DNA from: a virus
Lineage: Duplodnaviria; Heunggongvirae; Uroviricota; Caudoviricetes
DNA length: 39,545 nucleotides
Direction: 5' to 3' (one strand)
IMG/VR virus record: IMGVR_UViG_2913152634_000006
The notes below the pieces were generated by a model. It did not search any database. It had not been told where the DNA came from and was given only the letters and a program-made list of their open reading frames with translations. Numbering within the stretch: position 1 is the first letter of the stretch; each line of letters opens with the position of its first letter. Both the position numbers and the translations under genes were made by a program. Below are positions 8,129 to 38,320 of this stretch, one piece after another.

Positions 8129-8974
8129 ATGACAAAGCCTTCTCATTTTAGAACCCCTCTTCGTTATCCGGGAGGTAAGGCAAAATTCTTGCCACATATT
8201 GAACAAATACTCCGCAACAATGATCTCATTGGTGGATGTTATGCTGAACCTTATGCAGGTGGAGCCGGTGTAGCATTAGGTTTGCTCCTTAACGGTCTTG
8301 TTGAAAATATCTTCATAAATGATATTGATCCTGCCATTTATTCTTTTTGGTTTGCAGTGGTTAATCATAACGATCTGTTATGTGAAATGATTGATGAAGT
8401 TCCTGTGACTATTGAAAATTGGCATACTCAAAAGGAGATACTCCTAAACAATGATAAATATAGTATGCTTGAAGTCGCATTATCTACTTTCTTTTTAAAT
8501 AGAACAAACCGTTCAGGAATACTTAAGGCTGGCGTTATTGGAGGGAAAGAACAAAAAGGACCATGGAAGTTAGATGCAAGATTCAACAAAAAAGAGTTAA
8601 TTAAAAGGATTGAACTAATTGGTGCATATAAGGAGAAAATTTACGTATCGAATTTTGATGCTGTAGATTTTCTGCTACACCAAAAAGCATTGCTACCCAA
8701 AAATAGTCTAATATATCTTGATCCACCTTATTATGTTAAAGGAGCAGAGTTATATAGAAATTTTTATAAACATGATGATCATGTAAAAATCGCTAATACA
8801 CTACGGGAAATTCAACTACCTTGGGTTGTGTCTTATGACAATGTGCCTGAAATAAAAAGCATATATCATGAATTCAATATGACTGATTATACGCTTAATT
8901 ATACTGCACAAGATAAGAAAAAAGGTCTAGAAATTATCATTTATAATCATGGTATAAAAATCCCTGACATTTAA
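8129..8974 (+). CDS. Dam-family (D12-class, alpha-type) N6-adenine DNA methyltransferase
   Basis: 281 aa; N-terminal RYPGGKAKFL, SAM-binding EPYAGGAGV, catalytic DPPYY; AT-rich coding sequence with an AT-rich upstream region. Confidence 0.85.
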   Translation: MTKPSHFRTPLRYPGGKAKFLPHIEQILRNNDLIGGCYAEPYAGGAGVALGLLLNGLVENIFINDIDPAIYSFWFAVVNHNDLLCEMIDEVPVTIENWHTQKEILLNNDKYSMLEVALSTFFLNRTNRSGILKAGVIGGKEQKGPWKLDARFNKKELIKRIELIGAYKEKIYVSNFDAVDFLLHQKALLPKNSLIYLDPPYYVKGAELYRNFYKHDDHVKIANTLREIQLPWVVSYDNVPEIKSIYHEFNMTDYTLNYTAQDKKKGLEIIIYNHGIKIPDI

Positions 8975-8991
8975 ATTTAAGGATGATATAG

Positions 8992-10689
8992 ATGATTAAA
9001 GAAATTAGTTTTAAAAAATTTAAGAAACTGATAGATATTGACTTCTCATTCAATGAAGACATCAATATAATATCAGGAACCAATGGGACATGTAAGACAA
9101 CATTGCTTCATTTAATTAGCAATGGTTTCCAAATGCCACCATCTCGATCACAAAATTATTCAAATAGTAATTGTGTTAGAGTTATAAAATCTATAAACAA
9201 AATAGCCAACCCCAAAATGGAAGCAATTGTTAGGGAATCAAAAAATTACACCGATCCGGCAGAGGGAACAAAAGGTGTGTTATTTTCTATTAACTATTTG
9301 GATCATAGCACACTAGACTTCAGAAAGCACAACTCAAAAAATCCAGACGAAGCGCAACGGTATGCTATCAAACCAGTATACCCACGCGGAAAAGAAAAAC
9401 AATCACTTCCAGCTAAACCAGTTTTATATCTTGGATTATCGCGACTATTCCCAATTGGTGAAACTAAAGACGACGCCCTTACAAAAATTCCGTTAAACCT
9501 ACCAGAAGAGTATGTTGGTTATATATCGAAAATATATAATGAACTTTTGGGCATTAATATTATAAATATAGAATCAAACAATATCGGAGATTTTAAAGCT
9601 GGCCCATTATTTGATACCGATAACCCAGCAATTGATTCTAATACCATATCATCCGGGGAAGACAATATATTCATTATAATCAAGGCATTAGTTAGCCTTA
9701 GGTATTATTTTGAATCACTTATTCAATCCACTGATCAAAAAGAAAGCATTCTGTTAATAGATGAATTTGATGCCACTTTACATCCTTCTTTACAGATAAG
9801 ATTATTAGATAAAATTTATCAATACGCAAAAGATTATAAGATTCAAGTATTTTTCACAACGCACAGTCTGACATTGCTAGAGTATGCTTTTCATAAAAAA
9901 TACCATGTTGTCTATCTAATTAACAATATTACAAAGGCTCTGCTTTTGGATAATCCTGATATATTAAAAATAACAATGTATCTGAAAACACAAACAAAGG
10001 ATGAGATATACACAAGGAACAAGATACCAGTTTTCACGGAAGATGAAGAAGCTCGCTTTTTATTTAATGAAATACTTGGTTATTGGATAAGCAAATATCC
10101 AAATTTTGCTATAGTTAGTAATTCATTTCACTTAATTGATTGTTTCATTGGCGCAGACAATTTAAAAACTATTTTTAATGATTCTCATCTTAAGGAAACC
10201 TCGTTAAAATCAATTTGTATTCTTGATGGAGATCACAGCCCTGAGGATCAGAGAGGAATTATATCACTGCCGGGTGAAAAAGCTCCAGAACAATTGATAT
10301 TTGAGCATTGTGAGCACCTTTATAATACCGACGACTCTTCCTTCTGGGAAAATCAGGATATAATTAACAATGGTTTTTCGAAAGAGTTATACTTACTCAA
10401 GATACGTCCTCAATTACAATCAATTGAAACTGAAATTCAGAAAAGAAAAGACAACCATGAGTCTACATCCGGTTTAAGAAGAAGATTAAATAAGAAAATA
10501 TTCAATCAGCATATTGAATTCTTTAGAATGATTACAAGAAACTGGTTAGACAAACCAGAAAATCAGAAATCTCTCCAGTATTTTTACAATGGATTACGAT
10601 CCTTATTCTACCGGGTTACACCAACAAACGGCATTGACAGAAAAATTTGGGATTTTGACTATAACAAAATCATTAAAGAGGATAAATAA
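8992..10689 (+). CDS. ABC/AAA-type ATPase with probable C-terminal TOPRIM-like region (OLD-family-like nuclease candidate)
   Basis: 565 aa; N-terminal P-loop ISGTNGTCKTTLLHLI, Walker B/D-loop ILLIDEFDATLHP, H-loop VFFTTHSL; C-terminal acidic motifs VFTEDEE and ILDGDHS spaced about 55 aa apart, resembling TOPRIM Glu and DxD; begins 18 nt after the methyltransferase stop with SD AAGGATGA; occupies the locus where P2 carries old/tin. Confidence 0.8.
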   Translation: MIKEISFKKFKKLIDIDFSFNEDINIISGTNGTCKTTLLHLISNGFQMPPSRSQNYSNSNCVRVIKSINKIANPKMEAIVRESKNYTDPAEGTKGVLFSINYLDHSTLDFRKHNSKNPDEAQRYAIKPVYPRGKEKQSLPAKPVLYLGLSRLFPIGETKDDALTKIPLNLPEEYVGYISKIYNELLGINIINIESNNIGDFKAGPLFDTDNPAIDSNTISSGEDNIFIIIKALVSLRYYFESLIQSTDQKESILLIDEFDATLHPSLQIRLLDKIYQYAKDYKIQVFFTTHSLTLLEYAFHKKYHVVYLINNITKALLLDNPDILKITMYLKTQTKDEIYTRNKIPVFTEDEEARFLFNEILGYWISKYPNFAIVSNSFHLIDCFIGADNLKTIFNDSHLKETSLKSICILDGDHSPEDQRGIISLPGEKAPEQLIFEHCEHLYNTDDSSFWENQDIINNGFSKELYLLKIRPQLQSIETEIQKRKDNHESTSGLRRRLNKKIFNQHIEFFRMITRNWLDKPENQKSLQYFYNGLRSLFYRVTPTNGIDRKIWDFDYNKIIKEDK

Positions 10690-20239: not shown

Positions 20240-20817
20240 GCGCAGAACTCATGCGACTGCTGAGCAATATCATCCGCACCGGGATCATCTCTGAAGTTGA
20301 TGAGAAGTCCTGGCGCGTGCGCGTTCGCAGCGGCGAACTGGAAACAGGCTGGTTGCGCTGGAACACCACGCGCGCGGGGGCCTTCAATGTGTGGCTGCCG
20401 CCATCACCAGGCGAACAGGTGGTAATTGCCTGCATTGGCGGCAACCCGGAAACCGCCATGATAATTGGCAGCCTGTGGAGTGATGCCAATCCGGCCCCCG
20501 GCAAAAGCCTGAAAGAAATCGTGATCAGCGCGCCGGACGGCGCGGTGTTCCGCTACGACGCGGACGCAGGCGCACTGAGCGCCAGCGGCATGAAAACGGC
20601 CACTTTACAGGCATCCGTCAGCGTGAAACTGGACACGCCCGTCGTGGAATGCACAAACCTTCTGAGAACGGCGACGCTTGACGTCACAAAAGGAGGAAAG
20701 ATGAGCGGCAATATCACGCACAGCGGCGGCAACTTCACCTCAAACGGCATTACCGTGCATACGCATAAACACGGTGGCGTGAAAGGTGGCAGCGATTCGA
20801 CAGGAGGCCCGCAGTGA
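20236..20817 (+). CDS. V: Baseplate spike/assembly protein V
   Basis: 193 aa, GTG start overlapping the S stop; glycine-rich C-terminus; synteny S-V-W-J-I. Confidence 0.8.
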   Translation: MSAELMRLLSNIIRTGIISEVDEKSWRVRVRSGELETGWLRWNTTRAGAFNVWLPPSPGEQVVIACIGGNPETAMIIGSLWSDANPAPGKSLKEIVISAPDGAVFRYDADAGALSASGMKTATLQASVSVKLDTPVVECTNLLRTATLDVTKGGKMSGNITHSGGNFTSNGITVHTHKHGGVKGGSDSTGGPQ

Positions 20818-21164
20818 CAACCCGCTACACAGGAATGAATCCGGACGGGACAGGAAACCTGAACGATATGGAGCACCTGAAACAGTCAGTCAGGGATATC
20901 CTGACCACCCCGCTGGCAAGCCGGGTTATGCGACGGGAATATGGCAGCCTTGTGCCTGATTTGATTGACGAACCCATGAATAACACCACGCGTCTGCAAT
21001 GCATGAGTGCTGCCGTGATTGCGCTGACACGATGGGAACCCCGCATTGCCCTGGATGCCATCGACGTTGTCTGGAAAGCGGGAGGCCGCGCCGGGGTGAC
21101 GCTGTCGGGCACTGTCATGCAGACCATGCAGAATGTTGAATTAACCATCACGCTAAGGGAGTAA
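20814..21164 (+). CDS. W: Baseplate protein W (T4 gp25-like)
   Basis: 116 aa (P2 W is 115 aa); 4-nt overlap with V. Confidence 0.8.
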   Translation: MTTRYTGMNPDGTGNLNDMEHLKQSVRDILTTPLASRVMRREYGSLVPDLIDEPMNNTTRLQCMSAAVIALTRWEPRIALDAIDVVWKAGGRAGVTLSGTVMQTMQNVELTITLRE

Positions 21165-21167
21165 ATC

Positions 21168-22064
21168 ATGCCCGCCGTTGACCTTTCACAGTTACCGGAC
21201 CCCGCCATCATCGCGGAGCCTGACTTTGAGGCAATTCTGGCTGACACAAAGGCCATGATAATTGCGGCTTATCCCGCCGAACAGCGTGAAGCCGTTTCCG
21301 CCGCGCTGGAGCTGGAATCGGAACCCCTTAACGTTATCGCTCAAACCATGTCTTTTCGTGAAATGCTGTTACGCCAGCGGGTTAACGAGGGGGCACGCGC
21401 CTGCATGTTAAGCCACAGCGCCGGGACAGACCTGGACAACCTCGCGGGCAATATGAACACAAAGCGCCTGGTTATCACTCCGGCAACGGATACCACCGAC
21501 GCGGTGATGGAGAGCGACACATCGCTGAGACTGCGGGCGCAGCGGGCGTACGACGGCCTGAGTGTTGCTGGCCCGTCAGGTGCATACGAGTATTTTGCCC
21601 GCAGCGCCAGCGGTCTGGTGCGTGATGCGCGGGCTATCAGTCCGTCTCCGGCAAATGTGACGGTTTCCATTCTGTCCACTGAAGGCGACGGCACAGCAAC
21701 GGAGGCGTTGCTTAATACCGTTCGCGCCGTTCTGAATGCAGAGGACACCCGCCCGGTGGCCGACCGCCTGACCGTACAGAGCGCCAGAATCGTGACATGG
21801 CGGCTGAATGCAAAACTGTACTTTTACCCCGGTCCGGAATCCGAACCTATTCTGGCTGCGGCGGAATCGTCGTTCAGGAAGTGGCTGGCTGAGCAGGGGC
21901 TTATCGGTCAGGACGTGGCGTTGTCCGCCATTGCTGCCGCACTGCATGTGCACGGTGTGCAACGCGTGGAGATAATCGAACCCACACAGAATATGGCCAT
22001 CAGCGACATACAGGCGGCGCGCTGTGAGTCATTCACCATCAGCGAAGGTGGGCGCAATGAGTAA
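21168..22064 (+). CDS. J: Baseplate assembly protein J
   Basis: 298 aa, synteny and size as P2 J. Confidence 0.85.
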   Translation: MPAVDLSQLPDPAIIAEPDFEAILADTKAMIIAAYPAEQREAVSAALELESEPLNVIAQTMSFREMLLRQRVNEGARACMLSHSAGTDLDNLAGNMNTKRLVITPATDTTDAVMESDTSLRLRAQRAYDGLSVAGPSGAYEYFARSASGLVRDARAISPSPANVTVSILSTEGDGTATEALLNTVRAVLNAEDTRPVADRLTVQSARIVTWRLNAKLYFYPGPESEPILAAAESSFRKWLAEQGLIGQDVALSAIAAALHVHGVQRVEIIEPTQNMAISDIQAARCESFTISEGGRNE

Positions 22065-24750: not shown

Positions 24751-25275
24751 ATGATGCACTTAAAGAACATAAAAGCGGGTAACGCTAAAACACTGGAACA
24801 GTATGAGTTAACAAAGAAACACGGAGTTATCTGGCTTTACTCTGAGGACGGAAAAAACTGGTATGAGGAAGTGAAAAACTTTCAGCCAGACACCATAAAG
24901 ATTGTTTACGATGAAAATAATATTATTGTCGCCATCACCAAAGATGCCTCCACGCTTAACCCTGAAGGTTTTAGCGTAGTTGAGGTTCCCGATATAACAA
25001 CCAATCGTCGGGCCGATGATTCCGGTAAGTGGATGTTTAAGGACGGAGCTGTGGTTAAACGGATTTATACAGCTGACGAACAACAACAGGCCGAATCACA
25101 AAAGGCCGCGTTACTTTCCGAAGCAGAAAGCGTTATTCAGCCACTGGAGCGCGCTGTCAGGCTGAATATGGCGACGGATGAGGAACGCGCACGACTGGAA
25201 TCATGGGAACGCTACAGTGTTCTGGTCAGCCGTGTGGATACGGCAAATCCTGAATGGCCACAAAAGCCTGAATAA
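24751..25275 (+). CDS. G: Tail fibre assembly chaperone G
   Basis: 174 aa, starts 2 nt after the H stop; paralogous to the inverted G' (shared MMHLKNI...GKNWYEE...[22 protein letters not shown]). Confidence 0.8.
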
Positions 25276-25282
25276 AAATTAA

Positions 25283-25298
25283 GGCCCGATAGCGGGCC
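25283..25298. terminator. Short GC hairpin (GGCCCG-atag-CGGGCC) between convergent G and G'
   Basis: Perfect 6-bp stem read directly; bidirectional position between convergent genes; weak flanking U-tracts. Confidence 0.4.
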
Positions 25299-25303
25299 TT
25301 GTC

Positions 25304-25837
25304 TCATTCTGGTTGTTCGGGAAACGTTACTGGCAGGCTGGAGGTGTCTGTAGATTCGACCTTCTGCGCATAGAGCATCCACTCGGTTAATTTTTGTTTA
25401 TTCTCGTCGGAAATGATGCCCAGCCGTAGCTGTGAGTCCCATAGCTGGGTTTTATCCCTGACAAGTTGCACCAGGCTTTGCTTTTCATTCTCTGCCTGCT
25501 GCCTCTGTTCCTCTTCGGTATAAGTTCGCTTTATCACTACGCCATCTTTGAACATCCATTTACCCGAAATATCAGCCCGGCGATTTGCTGTAATATCAGG
25601 AACCTCAACGACGCTTGCGCCTTCCGGATTAATTGCTGAAACATCCTTTTCAATACAAATAATAACGCCGTTGTAGTCATAGACCATTTTCAACGTATCA
25701 GTCTGGAAATTCTTTTGTTCCTCATACCAGTTTTTTCCATCCTCTGTATAAAGCCATTTGATGTTAAATTGTTTCGTTAGCTGGTATTGCTCTTTTGTTT
25801 TAGGGTTGCCAGCTGTAATATTTTTTAAGTGCATCAT
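25304..25837 (-). CDS. Alternative tail fibre assembly chaperone G'
   Basis: 177 aa, paralogue of G on the opposite strand inside the invertible segment. Confidence 0.8.
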   Translation of the reverse strand: MMHLKNITAGNPKTKEQYQLTKQFNIKWLYTEDGKNWYEEQKNFQTDTLKMVYDYNGVIICIEKDVSAINPEGASVVEVPDITANRRADISGKWMFKDGVVIKRTYTEEEQRQQAENEKQSLVQLVRDKTQLWDSQLRLGIISDENKQKLTEWMLYAQKVESTDTSSLPVTFPEQPE

Positions 25838-25839
25838 AA

Positions 25840-26796
25840 TTAAATACTCCCCGCGTTATACCACGTTCCATTAATGCAATACTGAATTGGCCTTGCCTGA
25901 GTTGTATCAATTAATTCATCACGGTTTCCGTTAACTGAACCAGTAACGACATAACCTGACCTGTCAGACCAGCCGGGACCATTCCATGTCTGAACAGATG
26001 ACAGACCGCCCAGGCGAATACCTGTAATAAACCTTGAGTTACATTCTGCCTGCGTATATGCACCAACATCCCCCGCAGAGGGTTTGCGGGTTGTGGTGTA
26101 AAACTCTGACCAGTTAGCTTCAAAGCCATAACCATCACGCGCTGAACGATAAAAGATGCCGCCGTTCTTATAATTCACGCGGAACTGTACAGCAGGGCAA
26201 CTCCCCGCATTCATATTGAAGTGGAGGATTAATGTCGATGCACCACTGATATCTGCATCATAAACACCGCTATTCCAGTTCCAGCCAACAGCTTTATCAT
26301 TTGCGACCCTGCTTCCTGTTTGCCCTAAAGCAAATGCAGGCTGCTGGTTTTTCGTGTTGTAGTCTCGTCGCCAGCCAGGAGAATAAGCATCACCATGATT
26401 AATATAAGTGAATTGAGCGTTAGTAATTCCGCCACCGCTGGACGTGCTCGGCGTGGTAACGCGTATAGTCATTGCGCCGCGGGTGCCAATAACTTCCACC
26501 ACAGCACCTGCAAGACAAATATTTCCGCAACCTGTATCTGTAATTACCTTATTATTTGCATAAGCCCATGAGCCTTTGCACATCCAGTAAGGATGGTTAA
26601 ATGCCCCCTGACTCTCCAGCCACGAAATGAATTGTGCGGTTGTCCAGGCCTGACTATCGCCACCAATATTCAGCCATGAGCTATATGCGCGGCAGGCCCC
26701 AATATTTTTGGTGAAGGTATCTTTTCCCGGAATATCTGCGCCGTTCTGGTTTTTCTGTAATGCGCCAGAAGCCTGATTTACCGTTTCCTGTAAACC
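25840..26796 (-). CDS. Alternative tail-fibre C-terminal cassette Hv' (promoterless and start-less; expressed only after inversion fuses it to H)
   Basis: Open frame from the crossover in the right gix site to the stop at 25840; the frame is closed by TAA immediately outside the site; C-terminus IQYCINGTWYNAGSI parallels the H C-terminus; the ORF-track Met start (26583) is internal. Confidence 0.65.
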   Translation of the reverse strand, partial: GLQETVNQASGALQKNQNGADIPGKDTFTKNIGACRAYSSWLNIGGDSQAWTTAQFISWLESQGAFNHPYWMCKGSWAYANNKVITDTGCGNICLAGAVVEVIGTRGAMTIRVTTPSTSSGGGITNAQFTYINHGDAYSPGWRRDYNTKNQQPAFALGQTGSRVANDKAVGWNWNSGVYDADISGASTLILHFNMNAGSCPAVQFRVNYKNGGIFYRSARDGYGFEANWSEFYTTTRKPSAGDVGAYTQAECNSRFITGIRLGGLSSVQTWNGPGWSDRSGYVVTGSVNGNRDELIDTTQARPIQYCINGTWYNAGSI

Positions 26797-26810
26797 GAGG
26801 TTTTAGATAA
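26785..26810. promoter_or_regulatory. gix/cix-like recombination site, right (inverted relative to the left site)
   Basis: ttcctgtaaaccgaggttttagataa; its reverse complement ttatctaaaacctcggtttacaggaa is close to the recalled gix sequence. Confidence 0.6.
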
Positions 26811-26864
26811 TGGCCGTTTCCGGCCTGCATGGCATGATTTGCGCTTTTGGACGGGAGATTCAGC

Positions 26865-27452
26865 GTGCTGATTGGCTATGTAAGGGTATCAACAAATGAC
26901 CAGAATACAGACCTGCAACGAAACGCTCTTGTTTGTGCAGGATGTGAACAAATATTTGAAGATAAATTAAGCGGGACAAAGACAGACCGACCGGGATTAA
27001 GACGCGCTTTAAAGCGCCTTCAAAAAGGTGACACGCTGGTTGTCTGGAAACTGGATCGCCTCGGGCGAAGCATGAAACATCTGATTTCTCTCGTCGGGGA
27101 ACTACGGGAGCGAGGAATTAATTTTCGCAGTCTGACCGACAGCATAGATACATCTTCTCCAATGGGGCGTTTTTTCTTCCACGTGATGGGTGCCCTGGCT
27201 GAAATGGAACGTGAATTAATTGTTGAACGTACACTGGCCGGACTGGCGGCAGCACGCGCACGGGGGCGCACAGGCGGACGTCGACCGAAGCTGACAAAAG
27301 AACAGCATGAGCAAATAGCAAGGCTGATCAAAAACGGGCACGACAGAAAACAACTGGCAATAATTTACGGCATTGGTATATCGACGATTTATCGTTACCA
27401 CCCCGCAGGAGAATCAATCGGAACAATAGAGAAGAGTCAGGAAACAAAATAA
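26865..27452 (+). CDS. Serine-recombinase DNA invertase (Gin/Hin/Cin/Pin family)
   Basis: From GTG 26865 (GGGAG SD 7 nt upstream): MLIGYVRVSTNDQNTDLQRNALVCAGCEQIFEDKLSG... is near-identical over the first ~140 aa to recalled Mu Gin, including the catalytic Ser in YVRVSTNDQ; C-terminal HTH. ORF-track ATG 26847 is the alternative start. Confidence 0.9.
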   Translation: MLIGYVRVSTNDQNTDLQRNALVCAGCEQIFEDKLSGTKTDRPGLRRALKRLQKGDTLVVWKLDRLGRSMKHLISLVGELRERGINFRSLTDSIDTSSPMGRFFFHVMGALAEMERELIVERTLAGLAAARARGRTGGRRPKLTKEQHEQIARLIKNGHDRKQLAIIYGIGISTIYRYHPAGESIGTIEKSQETK

Positions 27453-33073: not shown

Positions 33074-33230
33074 AGCTTCAGCCCCTTGTATCCGTTAAAT
33101 GATTCGGCAACAATCATCACCCACCACGCGCGTAATCTCACCCCTGCGCCGTTCTTCCGACCCAGCGACAACAAAAAGCAGTAACCCCCTCCGCACGCAC
33201 ATGCGACCATGCCGCACAGGGAGGGAACAG

Positions 33231-34340
33231 ATGACCGACACCACCATGCAATTGCTCAGTCAGAGCACAGACCCCGTGAAAATGCCGGATTTTGATATTC
33301 TCGCGGAGGGTAAAACGCTGTCAGGCGTGGCAGAGCGCCTGATGAGCCTGTCACTGACCGACAACCGGGGATTTGAGGCGGACCAGCTCACCATCACGCT
33401 GGATGATGCGGATGGTCAGTTGCAGCTACCGCCACGGGGCGCGCGCCTGACGGTTCTCATTGGCTGGAAAGGAGAACCGCTGACAGAAAAAGGCACTTAC
33501 ATTGTTGATGAAATCGCTCACGAAGGACCGCCGGACAGGCTGACTGTTTCAGCCAGAAGCGCAGATTTTCGGGATGAATTTAACGTTAAACGTGAGGTGT
33601 CCTGGCATGATGTGACCGTTGAGCGTGTGGTATCCGCCATCGCTCATCGGTATGGTCTGAAACCGCAAATCAGCGAAATGCTGATGGATATCGAAATCGA
33701 CCACGCCGACCAGACCGAAGAAAGCGACATGTCCTTCCTTACGCGCATGGCGGAAATGCTGGGCGCAATCACCACGGTAAAAAGCGGTAATCTGTTATTC
33801 ATCATGCCCGGCGGTGGCGTGAACGCACAGGGCCAGCCGTTGCCATCGTTTGCCATCACACGCAGCAGCGGCGATCGCCATCAGTTCCGCATTGCTGACC
33901 GCGAGGCGTATACAGGGGTACGCGCTTACTGGCTTGATCTTAATTACGGGAAAAAGAAAAAAGTCAGCGTGAAACGCCGCAAACCGCCAAAACCCAAAAA
34001 GGAGAAAAGCAGCAGCCGTGAAGGTGATTATATGGAAGGCGCAGAAGGCAATGTGTTTGTGTTACGCAAGACTTATCAGAACGAGCAGGCAGCAAGACGC
34101 GCAGCGGCGGCAAAGTGGCAGCAGCTACAACGCGGAGCCGCATCATTTTCCATCACGCTGGCGCGTGGACGTGCAGAACTCTACCCCGAAATGCATGGCA
34201 CGGTAACAGGATTTAAAAGCGAGATTGATAATCAGGACTGGATTATTGCGAAAGCCGAGCACACCATTGATAACAGTGGCTTTACCACGCAGCTTGAGCT
34301 TGAAGCAAAAATTCCGGAATGGATCGTAGAAACAGAATGA
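33231..34340 (+). CDS. D: Tail protein D (late control gene D family)
   Basis: Start at ATG 33231 after GGGAGGG; 369 aa; size and composition as P2 D; here divergent from FI rather than downstream of U. Confidence 0.8.
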   Translation: MTDTTMQLLSQSTDPVKMPDFDILAEGKTLSGVAERLMSLSLTDNRGFEADQLTITLDDADGQLQLPPRGARLTVLIGWKGEPLTEKGTYIVDEIAHEGPPDRLTVSARSADFRDEFNVKREVSWHDVTVERVVSAIAHRYGLKPQISEMLMDIEIDHADQTEESDMSFLTRMAEMLGAITTVKSGNLLFIMPGGGVNAQGQPLPSFAITRSSGDRHQFRIADREAYTGVRAYWLDLNYGKKKKVSVKRRKPPKPKKEKSSSREGDYMEGAEGNVFVLRKTYQNEQAARRAAAAKWQQLQRGAASFSITLARGRAELYPEMHGTVTGFKSEIDNQDWIIAKAEHTIDNSGFTTQLELEAKIPEWIVETE

Positions 34341-34462
34341 GTAAATTAGATGCATTAGCTCAGTCATGAGTTTACTGATTACGTACGGCACAGAAGCAGA
34401 CCTGATAGTTTGCTCTGTGCCAGAAACGGACATTGCCGACATCATAATCGACACAAATTACA

Positions 34463-35248
34463 TCAATCACCTATGTGATTACGTTCTATATATCTTACAA
34501 TCTTCTCTAAAGATTCAAATCCCCACCTCTGCATAGCATGTGGGAATTCTGTATATTCATAATCTTCTATGGTGAGATCCCATGTACTTTTCTTGAATTC
34601 ACACTGATATAATCGCACAGTCTTGTTTAAAACCAACCCTTCTAACACACTGCTTTTCTTAATGATTTTGTCAATGTCTTTATTGTTAATCCCAATGTAG
34701 ATAGCTGTTACCGAACTTAAATCAGTTATCTTGTCAATTAAAATATTTTCTTGCTTTTGTAATAGCCCCACTCGCTTTATTATTCTAACTTCTTCTTCAT
34801 ATTTCCAATGCAATGATTTAGTAAGCAATAATTTACTAATTACATCAGCGCTATAAATGTTTTCTTGACTGATTTTTAGTTTACTTTTTATTCGACTCTC
34901 TAAATAATTAATGTCACCTTTCTGTGCCGTAATTAGGCATTTTTCTTCATCATCAAACCCTGCCCTTTCTGTGTCAATTGCTACAACAAACCCCTGATGT
35001 TTATCAGCATAATGTGACCACATCAGTACATTGAGAGGATTTTTAGAAAGGCATAAGCAGGCAACATTTTGATTGATCTCCCCCCTCATAGCTAATGGTT
35101 CAAGCGATTCACCATCTAATGAAAGTTCATAGCCATAGCTTTCAAAAGGATCATTAAACTCACTATACGGAGTGAATTTTATAGAGATGTAACCATCTTT
35201 AAAAAATCGTTCCAATGATGTCTTATCTATATATTTATACAGAATCAT
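34463..35248 (-). CDS. AT-rich accessory (moron) gene, DUF2971-like protein of unknown function
   Basis: Start placed at ATG giving MILYKYID...; LYKY N-terminus, FNDPFE and MWSHYADKHQGFVV motifs resemble DUF2971 as I recall it; opposite strand to flanking D and ogr; strongly AT-rich relative to neighbours. Confidence 0.55.
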   Translation of the reverse strand: MILYKYIDKTSLERFFKDGYISIKFTPYSEFNDPFESYGYELSLDGESLEPLAMRGEINQNVACLCLSKNPLNVLMWSHYADKHQGFVVAIDTERAGFDDEEKCLITAQKGDINYLESRIKSKLKISQENIYSADVISKLLLTKSLHWKYEEEVRIIKRVGLLQKQENILIDKITDLSSVTAIYIGINNKDIDKIIKKSSVLEGLVLNKTVRLYQCEFKKSTWDLTIEDYEYTEFPHAMQRWGFESLEKIVRYIERNHIGD

Positions 35249-35443
35249 AATATATTCAGAATTAATTATAGGTGTTATCAGTATACAGTACTTCAACAAG
35301 TAGATGTAAAGATCCCATTTAAACGTTCCTCCTCAATACGCGGATTAAACAAATTAAAGCATCTTACTCAAAATGGACCATCAGTTGGATTTAGAGCCAA
35401 CACAACCTAGAATAGCGGCAGCACCACGTTAAGGGAGGTCGCT

Positions 35444-35704
35444 ATGTTCCGTTGTCCGCTTTGTGGCGCATCTGCCCGTATCCGCACCAGTCGTCCGGAA
35501 AATGATTCAAACACCGTGCGACAAAAGTATTACCAGTGCAACAACCTGGAATGCGGCGTATGCTTCTCAACACTGGAAGCTTTCCATAAATTCACATCGA
35601 AACACGCCTCCGGCGTTCACTCTTCAGAAGGTATCCCGTGGCATGAGCTGCCAGCTTCACACAGGGGAAACAATCAGATGAGTTTGCCTTTACCTCAGAA
35701 TTAA
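35444..35704 (+). CDS. ogr: Late gene transcriptional activator Ogr (zinc finger)
   Basis: MFRCPLCGASARIRTSR...YYQCNNLEC matches the C-x2-C...C-x4-C Ogr/Delta pattern and recalled P2 Ogr N-terminus (MFHCPLC...ARTSR...HQCQNVNC); strong SD AAGGGAGG. Confidence 0.8.
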   Translation: MFRCPLCGASARIRTSRPENDSNTVRQKYYQCNNLECGVCFSTLEAFHKFTSKHASGVHSSEGIPWHELPASHRGNNQMSLPLPQN

Positions 35705-35844: not shown

Positions 35845-36933
35845 TTACCTTCGCAAGTAGAAGGTTAGCGCCTCTCCTCTCAGGAGACAAGCGTTTGTAT
35901 GGGTCCACCACATATTGCAATTTTTATTCTCTTTTAAAATATATTCCACGGGCGTCATTAGTGCGAGCGCCTTGTGGGGTCTTTTGCTGTTATACAGCAC
36001 CAGATATTCCGCCAGCTTCTGGTTAAATAGCGCCAGATCTTCAAAGAGTAAAATCTCATTAAATTCAATAAACTGCTCTCTTAACGTCCGGTTAAAACGT
36101 TCACAGATAGCGTTCATTTTTGGCGTGTAGGGATAGGTCCAGAGGTGTTTGATAGCGGCTTCCTGCAGCGTTTTGTCGAAGTTTCCCAGGAACTCTTTTC
36201 CGTTATCTGTGATTATCTGGCTGATACCGACCGGGAACAACCGGGCTGCGCGGCTGAAGAAGTGATTGACGATATCACTGTTGAGTGACGGCACAGCCAG
36301 TGCCAGCGCGTAATTGCTGCATTCGTCGATCATGGTGATGACATAGCGACGCAGTTCGCCCATTCTGAGCTCAATGGCGTCCATCCCAATGAGCTCACCT
36401 GTCTTTACCGGGCGGTAGTGCTTTGGCCTGCGGGGTTTGGCAGACCGCTTTTTGACAAGCAGTGCCTTCCCCCGCGATCCCAGACGCACAGGTATCATCC
36501 GCATTTTATCATGTGCGGCAGCGATCATTCTGCCGATGGTGGAAACACTCGGACAGGCCAGATAGCGCTGTTCGCACCAGGGCTTCAGGCGAACAAAAAT
36601 CTGCTCTTTACCGAGGTTCGGCAGCTCTGTCCTGAGGCGTCGAATCTCTTTCAGCACATCGGGATGCCAGTGTTTTTTTCGTCGCACCAGAGGTGCCTTA
36701 CTGTGCGGGATTAGCCCCTCAGGTCCTTCCTTGTTCAGTAACTGACGCCACCAGTAAAGCGTGCGGCAGGACACGCCAAAGGCTTCAGAAGCTGCAGAAA
36801 TACCGTGTTTATCCCAGAAGTGCAGAGCCTTCATTCTCATTGTTGCTATATCAGCCATCACTGAAAGCCTCAACGCATAATCGGCCGTTTGGTAGTACTT
36901 AGGATAGCCAACCATCAGATGCTGCATTTGCAT
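35845..36933 (-). CDS. IS-element DDE transposase (rve integrase-core type, single ORF)
   Basis: 362 aa; N-terminal HTH-like segment (MKALHFWDKHGIS...CRTLYWWRQ), DDE-type core with ITDNGKEF; the real start is probably an internal Met (MADIATMRMK...); IS family and ends not determined. Confidence 0.7.
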   Translation of the reverse strand: MQMQHLMVGYPKYYQTADYALRLSVMADIATMRMKALHFWDKHGISAASEAFGVSCRTLYWWRQLLNKEGPEGLIPHSKAPLVRRKKHWHPDVLKEIRRLRTELPNLGKEQIFVRLKPWCEQRYLACPSVSTIGRMIAAAHDKMRMIPVRLGSRGKALLVKKRSAKPRRPKHYRPVKTGELIGMDAIELRMGELRRYVITMIDECSNYALALAVPSLNSDIVNHFFSRAARLFPVGISQIITDNGKEFLGNFDKTLQEAAIKHLWTYPYTPKMNAICERFNRTLREQFIEFNEILLFEDLALFNQKLAEYLVLYNSKRPHKALALMTPVEYILKENKNCNMWWTHTNACLLRGEALTFYLRR

Positions 36934-37225
36934 AGTGCAATCTCCCCTTACTTATCCGGAGGCAATTGCAATATCTCTGTGAACTTACACAGCGTTATGA
37001 CGCAAATTCCGTTAAAAACCCTGTTACTTTGCATAACTGCGGTAGCGATAATCTGGATCCTCCACACATCACCGTGCGAGTTACGATTCAGGTTTGCTGG
37101 CACGGAAATTGCGGCATTCTTACTATGTAATAAGTAAGATAACCGCGACGGGGGAGTAATCCCCCGTCAATCGGTTGCTAAGGTTGGTCGAAACGGCACC
37201 CTATCTCACAGACATGAACAACAAA

Positions 37226-37339: not shown

Positions 37340-37386
37340 GATTTGTTATCATATCGGCAGCAGTAACCACACAAGAGGTGCCGCAA

Positions 37387-37584
37387 ATGACGCAAAATGT
37401 ACGATGCAAAAATTGCAACAAACTACTTGCCCGCGCCTCATTTCACTACATTGAAATAAAATGTCCGCGCTGCAAAACACTTAACCAGATAACGAGAGCC
37501 ATCGAGCACCCCACACACATGAGGAGTTATGACCGTGGGGATCGCAATCCAGCACCAACCAGCACATACACCGGAACACACTAA
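37387..37584 (+). CDS. Com-like zinc-finger translational regulator
   Basis: MTQNVRCKNCNKLLARASFHYIEIKCPRCKTLNQI resembles recalled Mu Com (MKSIRCKNCNKLLF...HIEIRCPRCK); ATG 37387 sits 7 nt after AGAGGTG; 3' end overlaps the downstream methyltransferase by 56 nt. Confidence 0.7.
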   Translation: MTQNVRCKNCNKLLARASFHYIEIKCPRCKTLNQITRAIEHPTHMRSYDRGDRNPAPTSTYTGTH

Positions 37585-38320
37585 GGTTTATCAGACTGAC
37601 AATGCCACGCTCTGTCGTGGGAATGCGCTGGAAATATTGCCGCTGATTGAGCCAGAAAGCATTGATGCCTTAATCACTGACCCGCCTTACAGTTCGGGTG
37701 CGACACACAAGGCCGGACGCACCAACCAGGGCAGCCATGCAAAATATCTGAACGGCGAGAACCTTCACCGCTTTGATGGGTTCGCGGGTGAAAACATGGA
37801 CGCCCGTTCGTGGGCTTACTGGACACAATTATGGATGGCACAGGCACACCGCGCAGTCAGGCCGGGCGGTTATGCCCTGGTATTTACTGACTGGCGACAA
37901 CTACCAGCTTTAACCGATGCGTTTCAGGCCAGTGGCTTTACATGGCGCGGCATCATTGCGTGGAACAAAGGGAGGGGGTCACGAACACCACATACCGGGT
38001 ATTTCCGGCATCAGTGCGAATACATCGTCTGGGGCAGCAAAGGCCATTTAGATAAATCGCCTTCGGGACCGTTCGACGGCTGCATGACGTTCCCGGTTAT
38101 CTCGTCAAAGAAAATGCACCCGACCGGAAAACCAGAAGAACTAATGGCGGAACTGGTCAGGACTGTGAATAGTGGCGGAACAGTCCTTGATCCTTTTATG
38201 GGGTCAGGGACAACGGGTGTGGCTGCACTGAAAGCAGGACGCAAATTTATTGGTATAGAAACCAGTGATCATTATTTTGATGTAGCAACACAACGGCTCA
38301 AAACGGCGATCGAACCATAA
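37529..38320 (+). CDS. DNA methyltransferase, beta-class N6-adenine/N4-cytosine type (DPPY before FxGxG)
   Basis: 263 aa; catalytic ALITDPPYSS near the N-terminus and SAM-binding VLDPFMGSGTTGVAA near the C-terminus (circularly permuted beta-class order); SD GAGGAG 2 nt upstream of the ATG; start overlaps the com-like gene. Confidence 0.85.
   Translation: MTVGIAIQHQPAHTPEHTKVYQTDNATLCRGNALEILPLIEPESIDALITDPPYSSGATHKAGRTNQGSHAKYLNGENLHRFDGFAGENMDARSWAYWTQLWMAQAHRAVRPGGYALVFTDWRQLPALTDAFQASGFTWRGIIAWNKGRGSRTPHTGYFRHQCEYIVWGSKGHLDKSPSGPFDGCMTFPVISSKKMHPTGKPEELMAELVRTVNSGGTVLDPFMGSGTTGVAALKAGRKFIGIETSDHYFDVATQRLKTAIEP

Follow-up and report, generated by a model that had tools for sequence, protein, structure and literature searches.

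What is a solitary, low-G+C gene doing between two conserved late-region genes of an Escherichia coli prophage, and does it serve the phage, the lysogen or neither? We take up this question for positions 34,341 to 35,443 of the virus record IMGVR_UViG_2913152634_000006, a stretch of 39,545 nucleotides referred to throughout as the window, in which the D and ogr genes of the prophage enclose a gene of the DUF2971 family on the opposite strand. The reading that we favour, with a probability of roughly 55%, is that this gene encodes a solitary, horizontally acquired protein resembling ADP-ribosyltransferases (ARTs), whose most likely role is abortive-infection defence of the lysogen against superinfection, a kind of defence gene already known but little studied. 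A defence role is supported because the protein matches the PADLOC candidate family PDC-S31, because phages, satellites, islands and phage-plasmids consistently carry the gene among their cargo, and because the DUF2971 protein Aristaios of Lactococcus provides a precedent.

The DUF2971 gene and the D–ogr slot

The gene, the insert that holds it and the genes on either side are as follows.

34463..35248, minus strand: DUF2971 protein gene (ATG start, 261 aa plus stop, no recognisable Shine-Dalgarno sequence)
34351..35411, no strand assigned: 1061-bp cargo insertion separating gpD from ogr (aligned against the empty P88_4B11 junction)
34346..34350, plus strand: left junction pentamer TTAGA, shared with the empty site (alignment with P88_4B11)
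35407..35411, plus strand: right junction pentamer CTAGA, which repeats the left one directly but imperfectly (alignment)
33099..34340, plus strand: gpD, tail/late control D protein, conserved core gene on the left flank (Pfam Phage_GPD, E 4e-17)
35444..35704, plus strand: ogr, late-gene activator zinc finger, conserved core gene on the right flank (Pfam Ogr_Delta, E 5e-14)

A profile search places the protein in Pfam DUF2971 (PF11185) with 44.4 bits (E 4.5e-11) against a gathering cut-off of 22 bits, residues 76-156 matching the whole model (1-89 of 89), and so secures a family assignment that a preliminary description of the locus, made from the sequence alone, had proposed from its motifs. 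PF11185 is also matched by all 68 homologues in our alignment, and it is the only Pfam family above its cut-off in the window protein, which further matches phrog_1762, a family of unknown function, and no NCBIfam model. Five hidden Markov models (HMMs) of PDC-S31 match it with E-values from 5.6e-27 to 1.1e-06; the best of these aligns residues 57-228 with model positions 105-256 of 259 (~58% of the model), PADLOC's own thresholds not being applied. A search for homologues yielded 1816.

The same open reading frame (ORF) has a longer version of 278 aa that begins at a TTG (34463..35299, minus strand). We reject this start and take the ATG as the real one, because M1-I2-L3-Y4-K5 is invariant or nearly so in the 68 homologues and because RefSeq annotates a 261-aa product, which in E. 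coli E110019, where the gene is 100% identical, is named 'DUF2971 domain-containing protein'.

The low G+C content ascribed to this opposite-strand gene in the preliminary description is borne out: the gene stands at 0.331 and the flanks of the prophage at ~0.53, and 300-nt windows give 0.29-0.38 over 34350-35400, compared with 0.49-0.60 for D and tail genes and 0.51 for ogr. Orthologues have a G+C of 0.32-0.36 in every host. Comparison with those of Serratia, Enterobacter, Buttiauxella and Scandinavium yields ratios of non-synonymous to synonymous substitution (dN/dS) of 0.14-0.24, and the gene is under purifying selection. A decaying, functionless passenger left by a past recombination event might be suspected from the rarity of the cargo, which occurs in 15 of 5426 complete E. 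coli genomes, and from the want of a Shine-Dalgarno sequence and a recognisable promoter. We disfavour this explanation and regard it as very improbable, given that every one of the 16 E. coli records has an intact ORF, that selection against amino acid change extends to orthologues in five other genera, that 22 columns are invariant in 68 homologues, and that the non-coding ends of the gene are conserved as well.

That the locus was acquired horizontally, as its position and composition had suggested, is supported by comparison with sister phages. The prophage belongs to the P2 family, as had been proposed, although it is P88-like (Peduoviridae; relatives of Xuanwuvirus and Gemsvirus) and not P2 itself. 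In the related phage P88_4B11, D and ogr lie 42 bp apart with no cargo between them, at the junction ...TTAGA|ATAGC..., and the corresponding span measures 1590 bp as against 2651 bp in the window, a difference of 1061 bp. Because sister phages keep this empty 42-bp junction where the window has a 1061-bp insertion, the DUF2971 locus is horizontally acquired relative to them.

The position is shared by other cargoes. Phages 500465-2 and 520873 have the identical ...CTAGA|ATAGCGGCAGC... junction, exactly placed, with a 340-aa protein that has a weak HEPN_RiboL-PSP match below the Pfam gathering score (L001 2862-3884) and a 132-aa protein without any family match, respectively; among P88-like phages in general, gpD is 95-98% identical. 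In a sample of 40 matches with both flanks aligned, spread over 1459 complete E. coli genomes with matches to the D and ogr flanks, 25 junctions are empty and 15 filled, with at least eight further insert classes. The inserts of this sample encode hypothetical proteins or proteins annotated as YecA/SEC-C-family, PIN-domain, ComF-family or ParA-family (genomes H102, H123, H124, H130-H132 and H137). Alternative inserts number at least nine, between flanks 95-98% identical. The YecA/SEC-C-family insert, of ~1.78 kb, recurs in strains of the enterohaemorrhagic E. coli type; a SEC-C motif is also reported for the lactococcal defence gene Rugutis (PMC11381338). Since empty sites and many alternative cargoes occur between conserved flanks, D–ogr is a true variable cargo slot, in keeping with what had been supposed of the position.

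In E. coli E110019 we also observe a second, unannotated copy of the cargo, 98.9% identical, at 20511-21604 of NZ_CP035755.1 (H28), a 25-kb record labelled as a plasmid, which may represent a second P2-like element or an assembly fragment.

Conserved residues, predicted fold and proposed mode of action

What might such a protein do? The 68-sequence alignment, read with the residue numbers of the 261-aa protein, has 22 columns invariant across all homologues. The invariant or near-invariant groups are Y4-K5, N32-D33-P34-F35, [C/S]66-L67-[T/S]68, W77-x-H79-Y80, Y115, K144 and W148-x-Y150-E151-x-E153-x-R155, with G86 invariant and H84 nearly so; the LYKY, FNDPFE and W-x-HYAD-x-H-x-G motifs singled out in the preliminary description lie among the invariant columns. 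Its statement that the gene has no known function is out of date, as DUF2971 has been predicted to be an ART family related to DarT and AbiGi, with the motifs HYx/Yxx/ExE (PMC12522546).

Our AlphaFold2 model of the window protein (predicted local distance difference test 89.3, predicted template-modelling score 0.87), compared with solved structures, lends that prediction moderate support. The nearest solved fold is that of DarT, with Tpt1 also near; the structural signal is weak, the structural alignments with DarT show 5-12% identity, and a PDB sequence search with the window protein gave no significant match to solved ARTs. When the model is compared with the ART active-site signature [R/H] - [S/Y]x[S/x] - [Q/E]x[E/Q/D], E151-x-E153 begins the seventh strand, which is the arrangement of ART motif III. 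Motifs I and II could be supplied by either of two sets of residues. In the first, K5 (strand 1) and [C/S]66-L-[T/S]68 (end of strand 3) would form an R-S-E-like site; in the second, H79-Y80 with Y115 and E151-x-E153 would form the H-Y-E site that has been proposed for DUF2971 (PMC12522546). Both sets are conserved, with K5, [C/S]66-L67-[T/S]68, H79-Y80, Y115 and E151-x-E153 each kept in 67-68 of the 68 homologues. The C-terminal ~100 residues, on the other hand, are poorly conserved, and many homologues align over residues 1-160 only. This pattern fits a two-part protein in which a conserved and presumably catalytic region (~1-160) is joined to a variable C-terminal region that may confer specificity or regulation.

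We suggest the following course of events, in which the defence phenotype, the use of NAD+, the target, the trigger and C-terminal autoinhibition are all proposed steps. The DUF2971 protein would be produced in small amounts, its gene being expressed from its conserved leader in the orientation opposite to the late genes, and would stay inactive until infection. On infection it would transfer ADP-ribose from NAD+ to an essential macromolecule, for which the resemblance to DarT and Tpt1 makes a nucleic acid the most plausible candidate, and this modification would halt the gene expression or replication of the phage (and the host), so that the infection is aborted. A more specific version, which we put forward tentatively, holds that the protein is an antitoxin-free, DarT-like nucleic-acid ART with a non-canonical, Lys-type NAD site, held off by its variable C-terminal domain and switched on by a phage cue, and that the gene with its ends forms a cassette shuffled among hotspots of P2-like phages, P4-like satellites, phage-plasmids and islands, D–ogr included, with palindromes perhaps as handles.

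Several points weigh against defence by an ART. PDC-S31 is a candidate family, and evidence that relatives defend their hosts is limited to the distant Aristaios, linked to the window protein by a shared Pfam domain alone. Motif I would be a lysine, or His79 at a non-canonical position, instead of the canonical His/Arg on strand 1, and the mapping of residues is ambiguous. Neither an antitoxin nor a self-protection device was found that would restrain a constitutively encoded toxin, and a promoter scan identified no promoter for the gene: the leader contains no consensus sigma-70 promoter, and the scan's 8 promoter-like sites against 5.4 expected are uninformative.

The weak structural signal and the non-canonical motif I are also compatible with a protein with a defensive or other accessory role that has no ART activity, be it a pseudoenzyme, an NAD+-independent enzyme, an NADase or a binding protein, whose invariant residues would serve some other chemistry. 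We consider this unlikely.

Conserved ends and carriage among mobile elements

The sequences on either side of the ORF hold the following features.

35249..35330, minus strand: conserved 5' leader/promoter region (~80 nt) that moves with the gene (conserved in six independent contexts)
34406..34462, minus strand: conserved 3' tail (~57 nt) that moves with the gene (orthologue comparison)
34387..34421, minus strand: imperfect hairpin GGCACAGAGCA-N12-TGCTTCTGTGCC where the cargo gene and gpD converge (read from the sequence)
34408..34434, minus strand: degenerate copy of a ~27-nt palindromic intergenic element (exact core 34417-34431)

The leader is ~80% identical over the six independent genomic contexts, whereas synonymous sites of the ORF differ by 45-53%. 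Both ends are better conserved than the synonymous sites; the mobile unit is, to judge from these alignments, the ORF together with its ~80-nt 5' leader and ~57-nt 3' tail. Candidates for a further function within these ends were rejected. A structured RNA, riboswitch or antisense antitoxin is contradicted by consensus folds of -2.5 and -2.9 kcal/mol with essentially no covariation, and an Rfam search of both ends gave no match. An 18-codon upstream ORF (35318-35262, minus strand) has a strong GAGGAGG Shine-Dalgarno sequence, but its ATG is replaced by AAGCGG/AAGCAG in orthologous leaders. A small ORF in the 3' tail varies in length among orthologues and overlaps a palindromic repeat that is present in both orientations elsewhere.

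This repeat has the canonical form AATGTCCGCTyCTGGCAC-nn-AGCGGAC, with a 7-bp stem and a conserved loop, and has no Rfam match. Intact copies lie beside unrelated cargo genes in phage 500465-2 (L001 2819-2833) and in an Enterobacter island (L014 8357-8371), and its exact 18-mer is present 88 times on 86 viral contigs, representing 70 distinct contexts with nothing conserved beyond the core (L097-L176); in 68 of these 70 it is intergenic. With 34 copies in one orientation and 36 in the other relative to gene ends, we reject a gene-specific 3' signal; the element behaves like a small REP-like (repetitive extragenic palindromic) repeat and could serve as a recombination handle in cargo exchange. 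A terminator scan found none at the point where the cargo gene and gpD converge; it did not call the hairpin at 34387..34421, which no T-run follows, and arms like GGCACAGAG...CTCTGTGCC accompany the palindromic element in several viral contigs.

Within the 1061-bp insert there is no second ORF, and across ten genomic contexts the DUF2971 gene has no conserved neighbour; a conserved partner gene was rejected, the 151-181-aa genes found upstream in three lineages being mutually unrelated. In Klebsiella aerogenes, a gene 13 nt upstream of the DUF2971 homologue (L185 5523-5987) has weak DUF4145 and HEPN_RiboL-PSP matches and may be a lineage-specific companion, one that is not conserved elsewhere.

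This solitary state bears on the possibility that the gene has no part in defence against phages and instead stabilises its element or harms competitors, whether as a selfish toxin, as an addiction module, or through an effector that is secreted or injected. The toxin-like ART fold and the wide carriage on plasmids and other mobile elements are compatible with such a role, and 18% of DUF2971 proteins are predicted effectors (PMC12522546). A cognate antitoxin or immunity gene and a conserved neighbour are nevertheless missing, neither a small conserved ORF nor a structured RNA occurs in the flanks, the neighbourhoods examined contain no delivery domains or genes for secretion systems, and no family other than DUF2971 is above its Pfam cut-off, so that we judge this role unlikely.

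Homologues with 43-98% identity occur in a range of other mobile contexts. One in Serratia lies at the end of a P4-like satellite, adjoining the primase, and the segment between primase and att is given as a minor hotspot position in the text of a description of P4 satellites (PMC13586616). Another is found in an island at ssrA with integrase, AlpA and DUF927-primase genes, beside an AAA_15/AAA_21 gene pair; others reside in SSU5-like phage-plasmids, in P88-like prophages at two different attachment sites, and in chromosomal islets, some again beside AAA_15/AAA_21 ATPases, and DUF2971 relatives appear in hundreds of plasmid records. The DUF2971 gene thus moves among unrelated mobile elements as a self-contained unit.

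Such carriage also helps to weigh whether the protein benefits the phage instead of the lysogen. The T4 enzymes Alt, ModA and ModB are examples of ARTs that act in the interest of the phage, and an ART of the prophage could likewise reprogramme or disarm host machinery or defences during its own lytic cycle, or act as a counter-defence factor. The gene does lie within a phage genome, adjoining late genes, its product resembles the ART fold, and it has homologues in other phages and in phage-plasmids. It is placed, however, on the strand opposite the late operons with its own conserved leader; most sister phages do without it; and close homologues reside in chromosomal islets outside phages, as well as in satellites and islands that themselves lack a lytic programme. 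In addition, the PADLOC entry rests on members embedded in BREX, DISARM or restriction–modification (RM) loci (bioRxiv 10.1101/2024.01.29.577857), and the single relative that has been tested defends its host (PMC11381338). We therefore find a benefit to the phage decidedly unlikely and retain defence of the lysogen as the preferred role.

The preliminary description had called the locus a second cargo site of its prophage, and indeed the gpA-gpQ hotspot also carries cargo of low G+C. This block (8129-10689, plus strand, G+C 0.32) encodes a D12 Dam-like methyltransferase that matches PADLOC PD-Lambda-5_B (E 1.6e-122) and then a 565-aa AAA_15/AAA_21 ATPase that resembles OLD, AriA, GajA and PtuA, and is probably a two-gene defence system of the PD-Lambda-5 type. 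Three further features were observed. Between ogr and a hok-like ORF (~36997-37137, plus strand) lies an insertion sequence (35845-36933, minus strand) with a 362-aa rve/IS481-like transposase, which is missing from E. coli E110019, where the D-DUF2971-ogr stretch is otherwise 100% identical. At 37378-38320 (plus strand), at the right prophage end before host flk, a Com-like zinc-finger ORF and the beginning of an N6_N4 DNA methyltransferase gene overlap in a com/mom-like arrangement that makes up another accessory module. At 24751-27452, a gene for a Hin-like serine recombinase (26847-27452; Resolvase and HTH_7) adjoins oppositely oriented ORFs for tail fibre and tail-fibre assembly, in what looks like an invertible host-range segment.

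Were the proposed defence role true, an enterobacterial DUF2971 defence gene borne by a prophage would be available in a tractable host for the first time, and it would turn the PADLOC candidate PDC-S31 into a defined system within a very large family (1816 homologues here, and thousands of species in the literature). It would also raise the mechanistic question of how an antitoxin-free ART toxin is silenced and what its substrate is; under the C-terminally restrained, antitoxin-free version, ART toxins in immunity would be seen to be controlled in a novel manner. Independently of the protein, D–ogr adds a compact slot to the P2-family hotspots in which defence candidates may be sought. Should the prediction fail, the locus would remain a clear illustration of how phages and satellites exchange cargo, and no more. 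Overall, it is a good experimental candidate, and an unsurprising one.

Comparison with known systems

The closest functional precedent is Aristaios, a 316-aa DUF2971 protein encoded on the Lactococcus plasmid pUCCL641_199 and validated as a single-gene defence, which is reported to be abortive-infection-like and to impair the transcription of its phage, a Skunavirus (PMC11381338, PMC13064643). Like the window protein, Aristaios combines a PF11185 domain and a predicted ART fold with single-gene organisation and carriage on a mobile element. It differs in belonging to another phylum and host, in its length (316 against 261 aa) and in its location on a plasmid as opposed to a prophage slot. The likeness is known from the shared PF11185 domain alone, and a tblastn search with the window protein had no Lactococcus among its ten most frequent genera or among the 40 matches listed.

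PDC families are candidates nominated by 'guilt-by-embedding' in BREX, DISARM and type I RM loci, their activity being untested (bioRxiv 10.1101/2024.01.29.577857). The window gene shares with PDC-S31 the HMM match and the single-gene status; whereas members of that family are embedded in defence loci, it occupies a prophage slot instead.

Contrasting with these family-level likenesses, the relation to DarT, the single-stranded-DNA ADP-ribosyltransferase of DarTG, is one of predicted fold. The window protein comes near to DarT in its model, but DUF2971 differs by large helical inserts and by an additional region at the C-terminus, and the DarT sequence family (PF14487) does not match the window protein, with 1 of 68 homologues reaching E 0.11; nor is there a PADLOC DarT match. 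A DarG macrodomain antitoxin was found neither in the insert nor in nine other contexts. With both the DarT sequence and the DarG partner absent from these searches, the window protein is not a member of DarTG, although it would act in a similar manner.

The ART-like families AbiGi and Lsan_0116 have been placed beside DUF2971 (PMC12522546). Compared by description, the Lsan_0116 motifs [RK]Y[ML] ... ExE and their '1-3-7' strand layout (PMC12522546) resemble K5-Y6-I7 on strand 1 and E151-x-E153 of the window protein. Pfam AbiGi matches neither this protein nor its homologues, and AbiG is a two-gene system (AbiGi and AbiGii), in contrast to the single gene described here.

Finally, the D–ogr slot itself can be set beside the hotspots of P2-family phages, which lie at gpA-gpQ ('old/tin'), a tail-gene locus, int-att and int-primase, with P4 hotspots likewise, according to the text of their descriptions (PMC9122126, PMC13586616). 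As far as that text goes, the logic is the same, with low-G+C, swappable and defence-rich cargo held between conserved core genes; D–ogr is not among the hotspots named in the text of the P2 descriptions, figures and supplementary tables aside. While a defensive DUF2971 protein is already known from Aristaios, what is new here is a putative defence gene of this family, nominated from its sequence, in an E. coli P2-like prophage at the junction of D and ogr.

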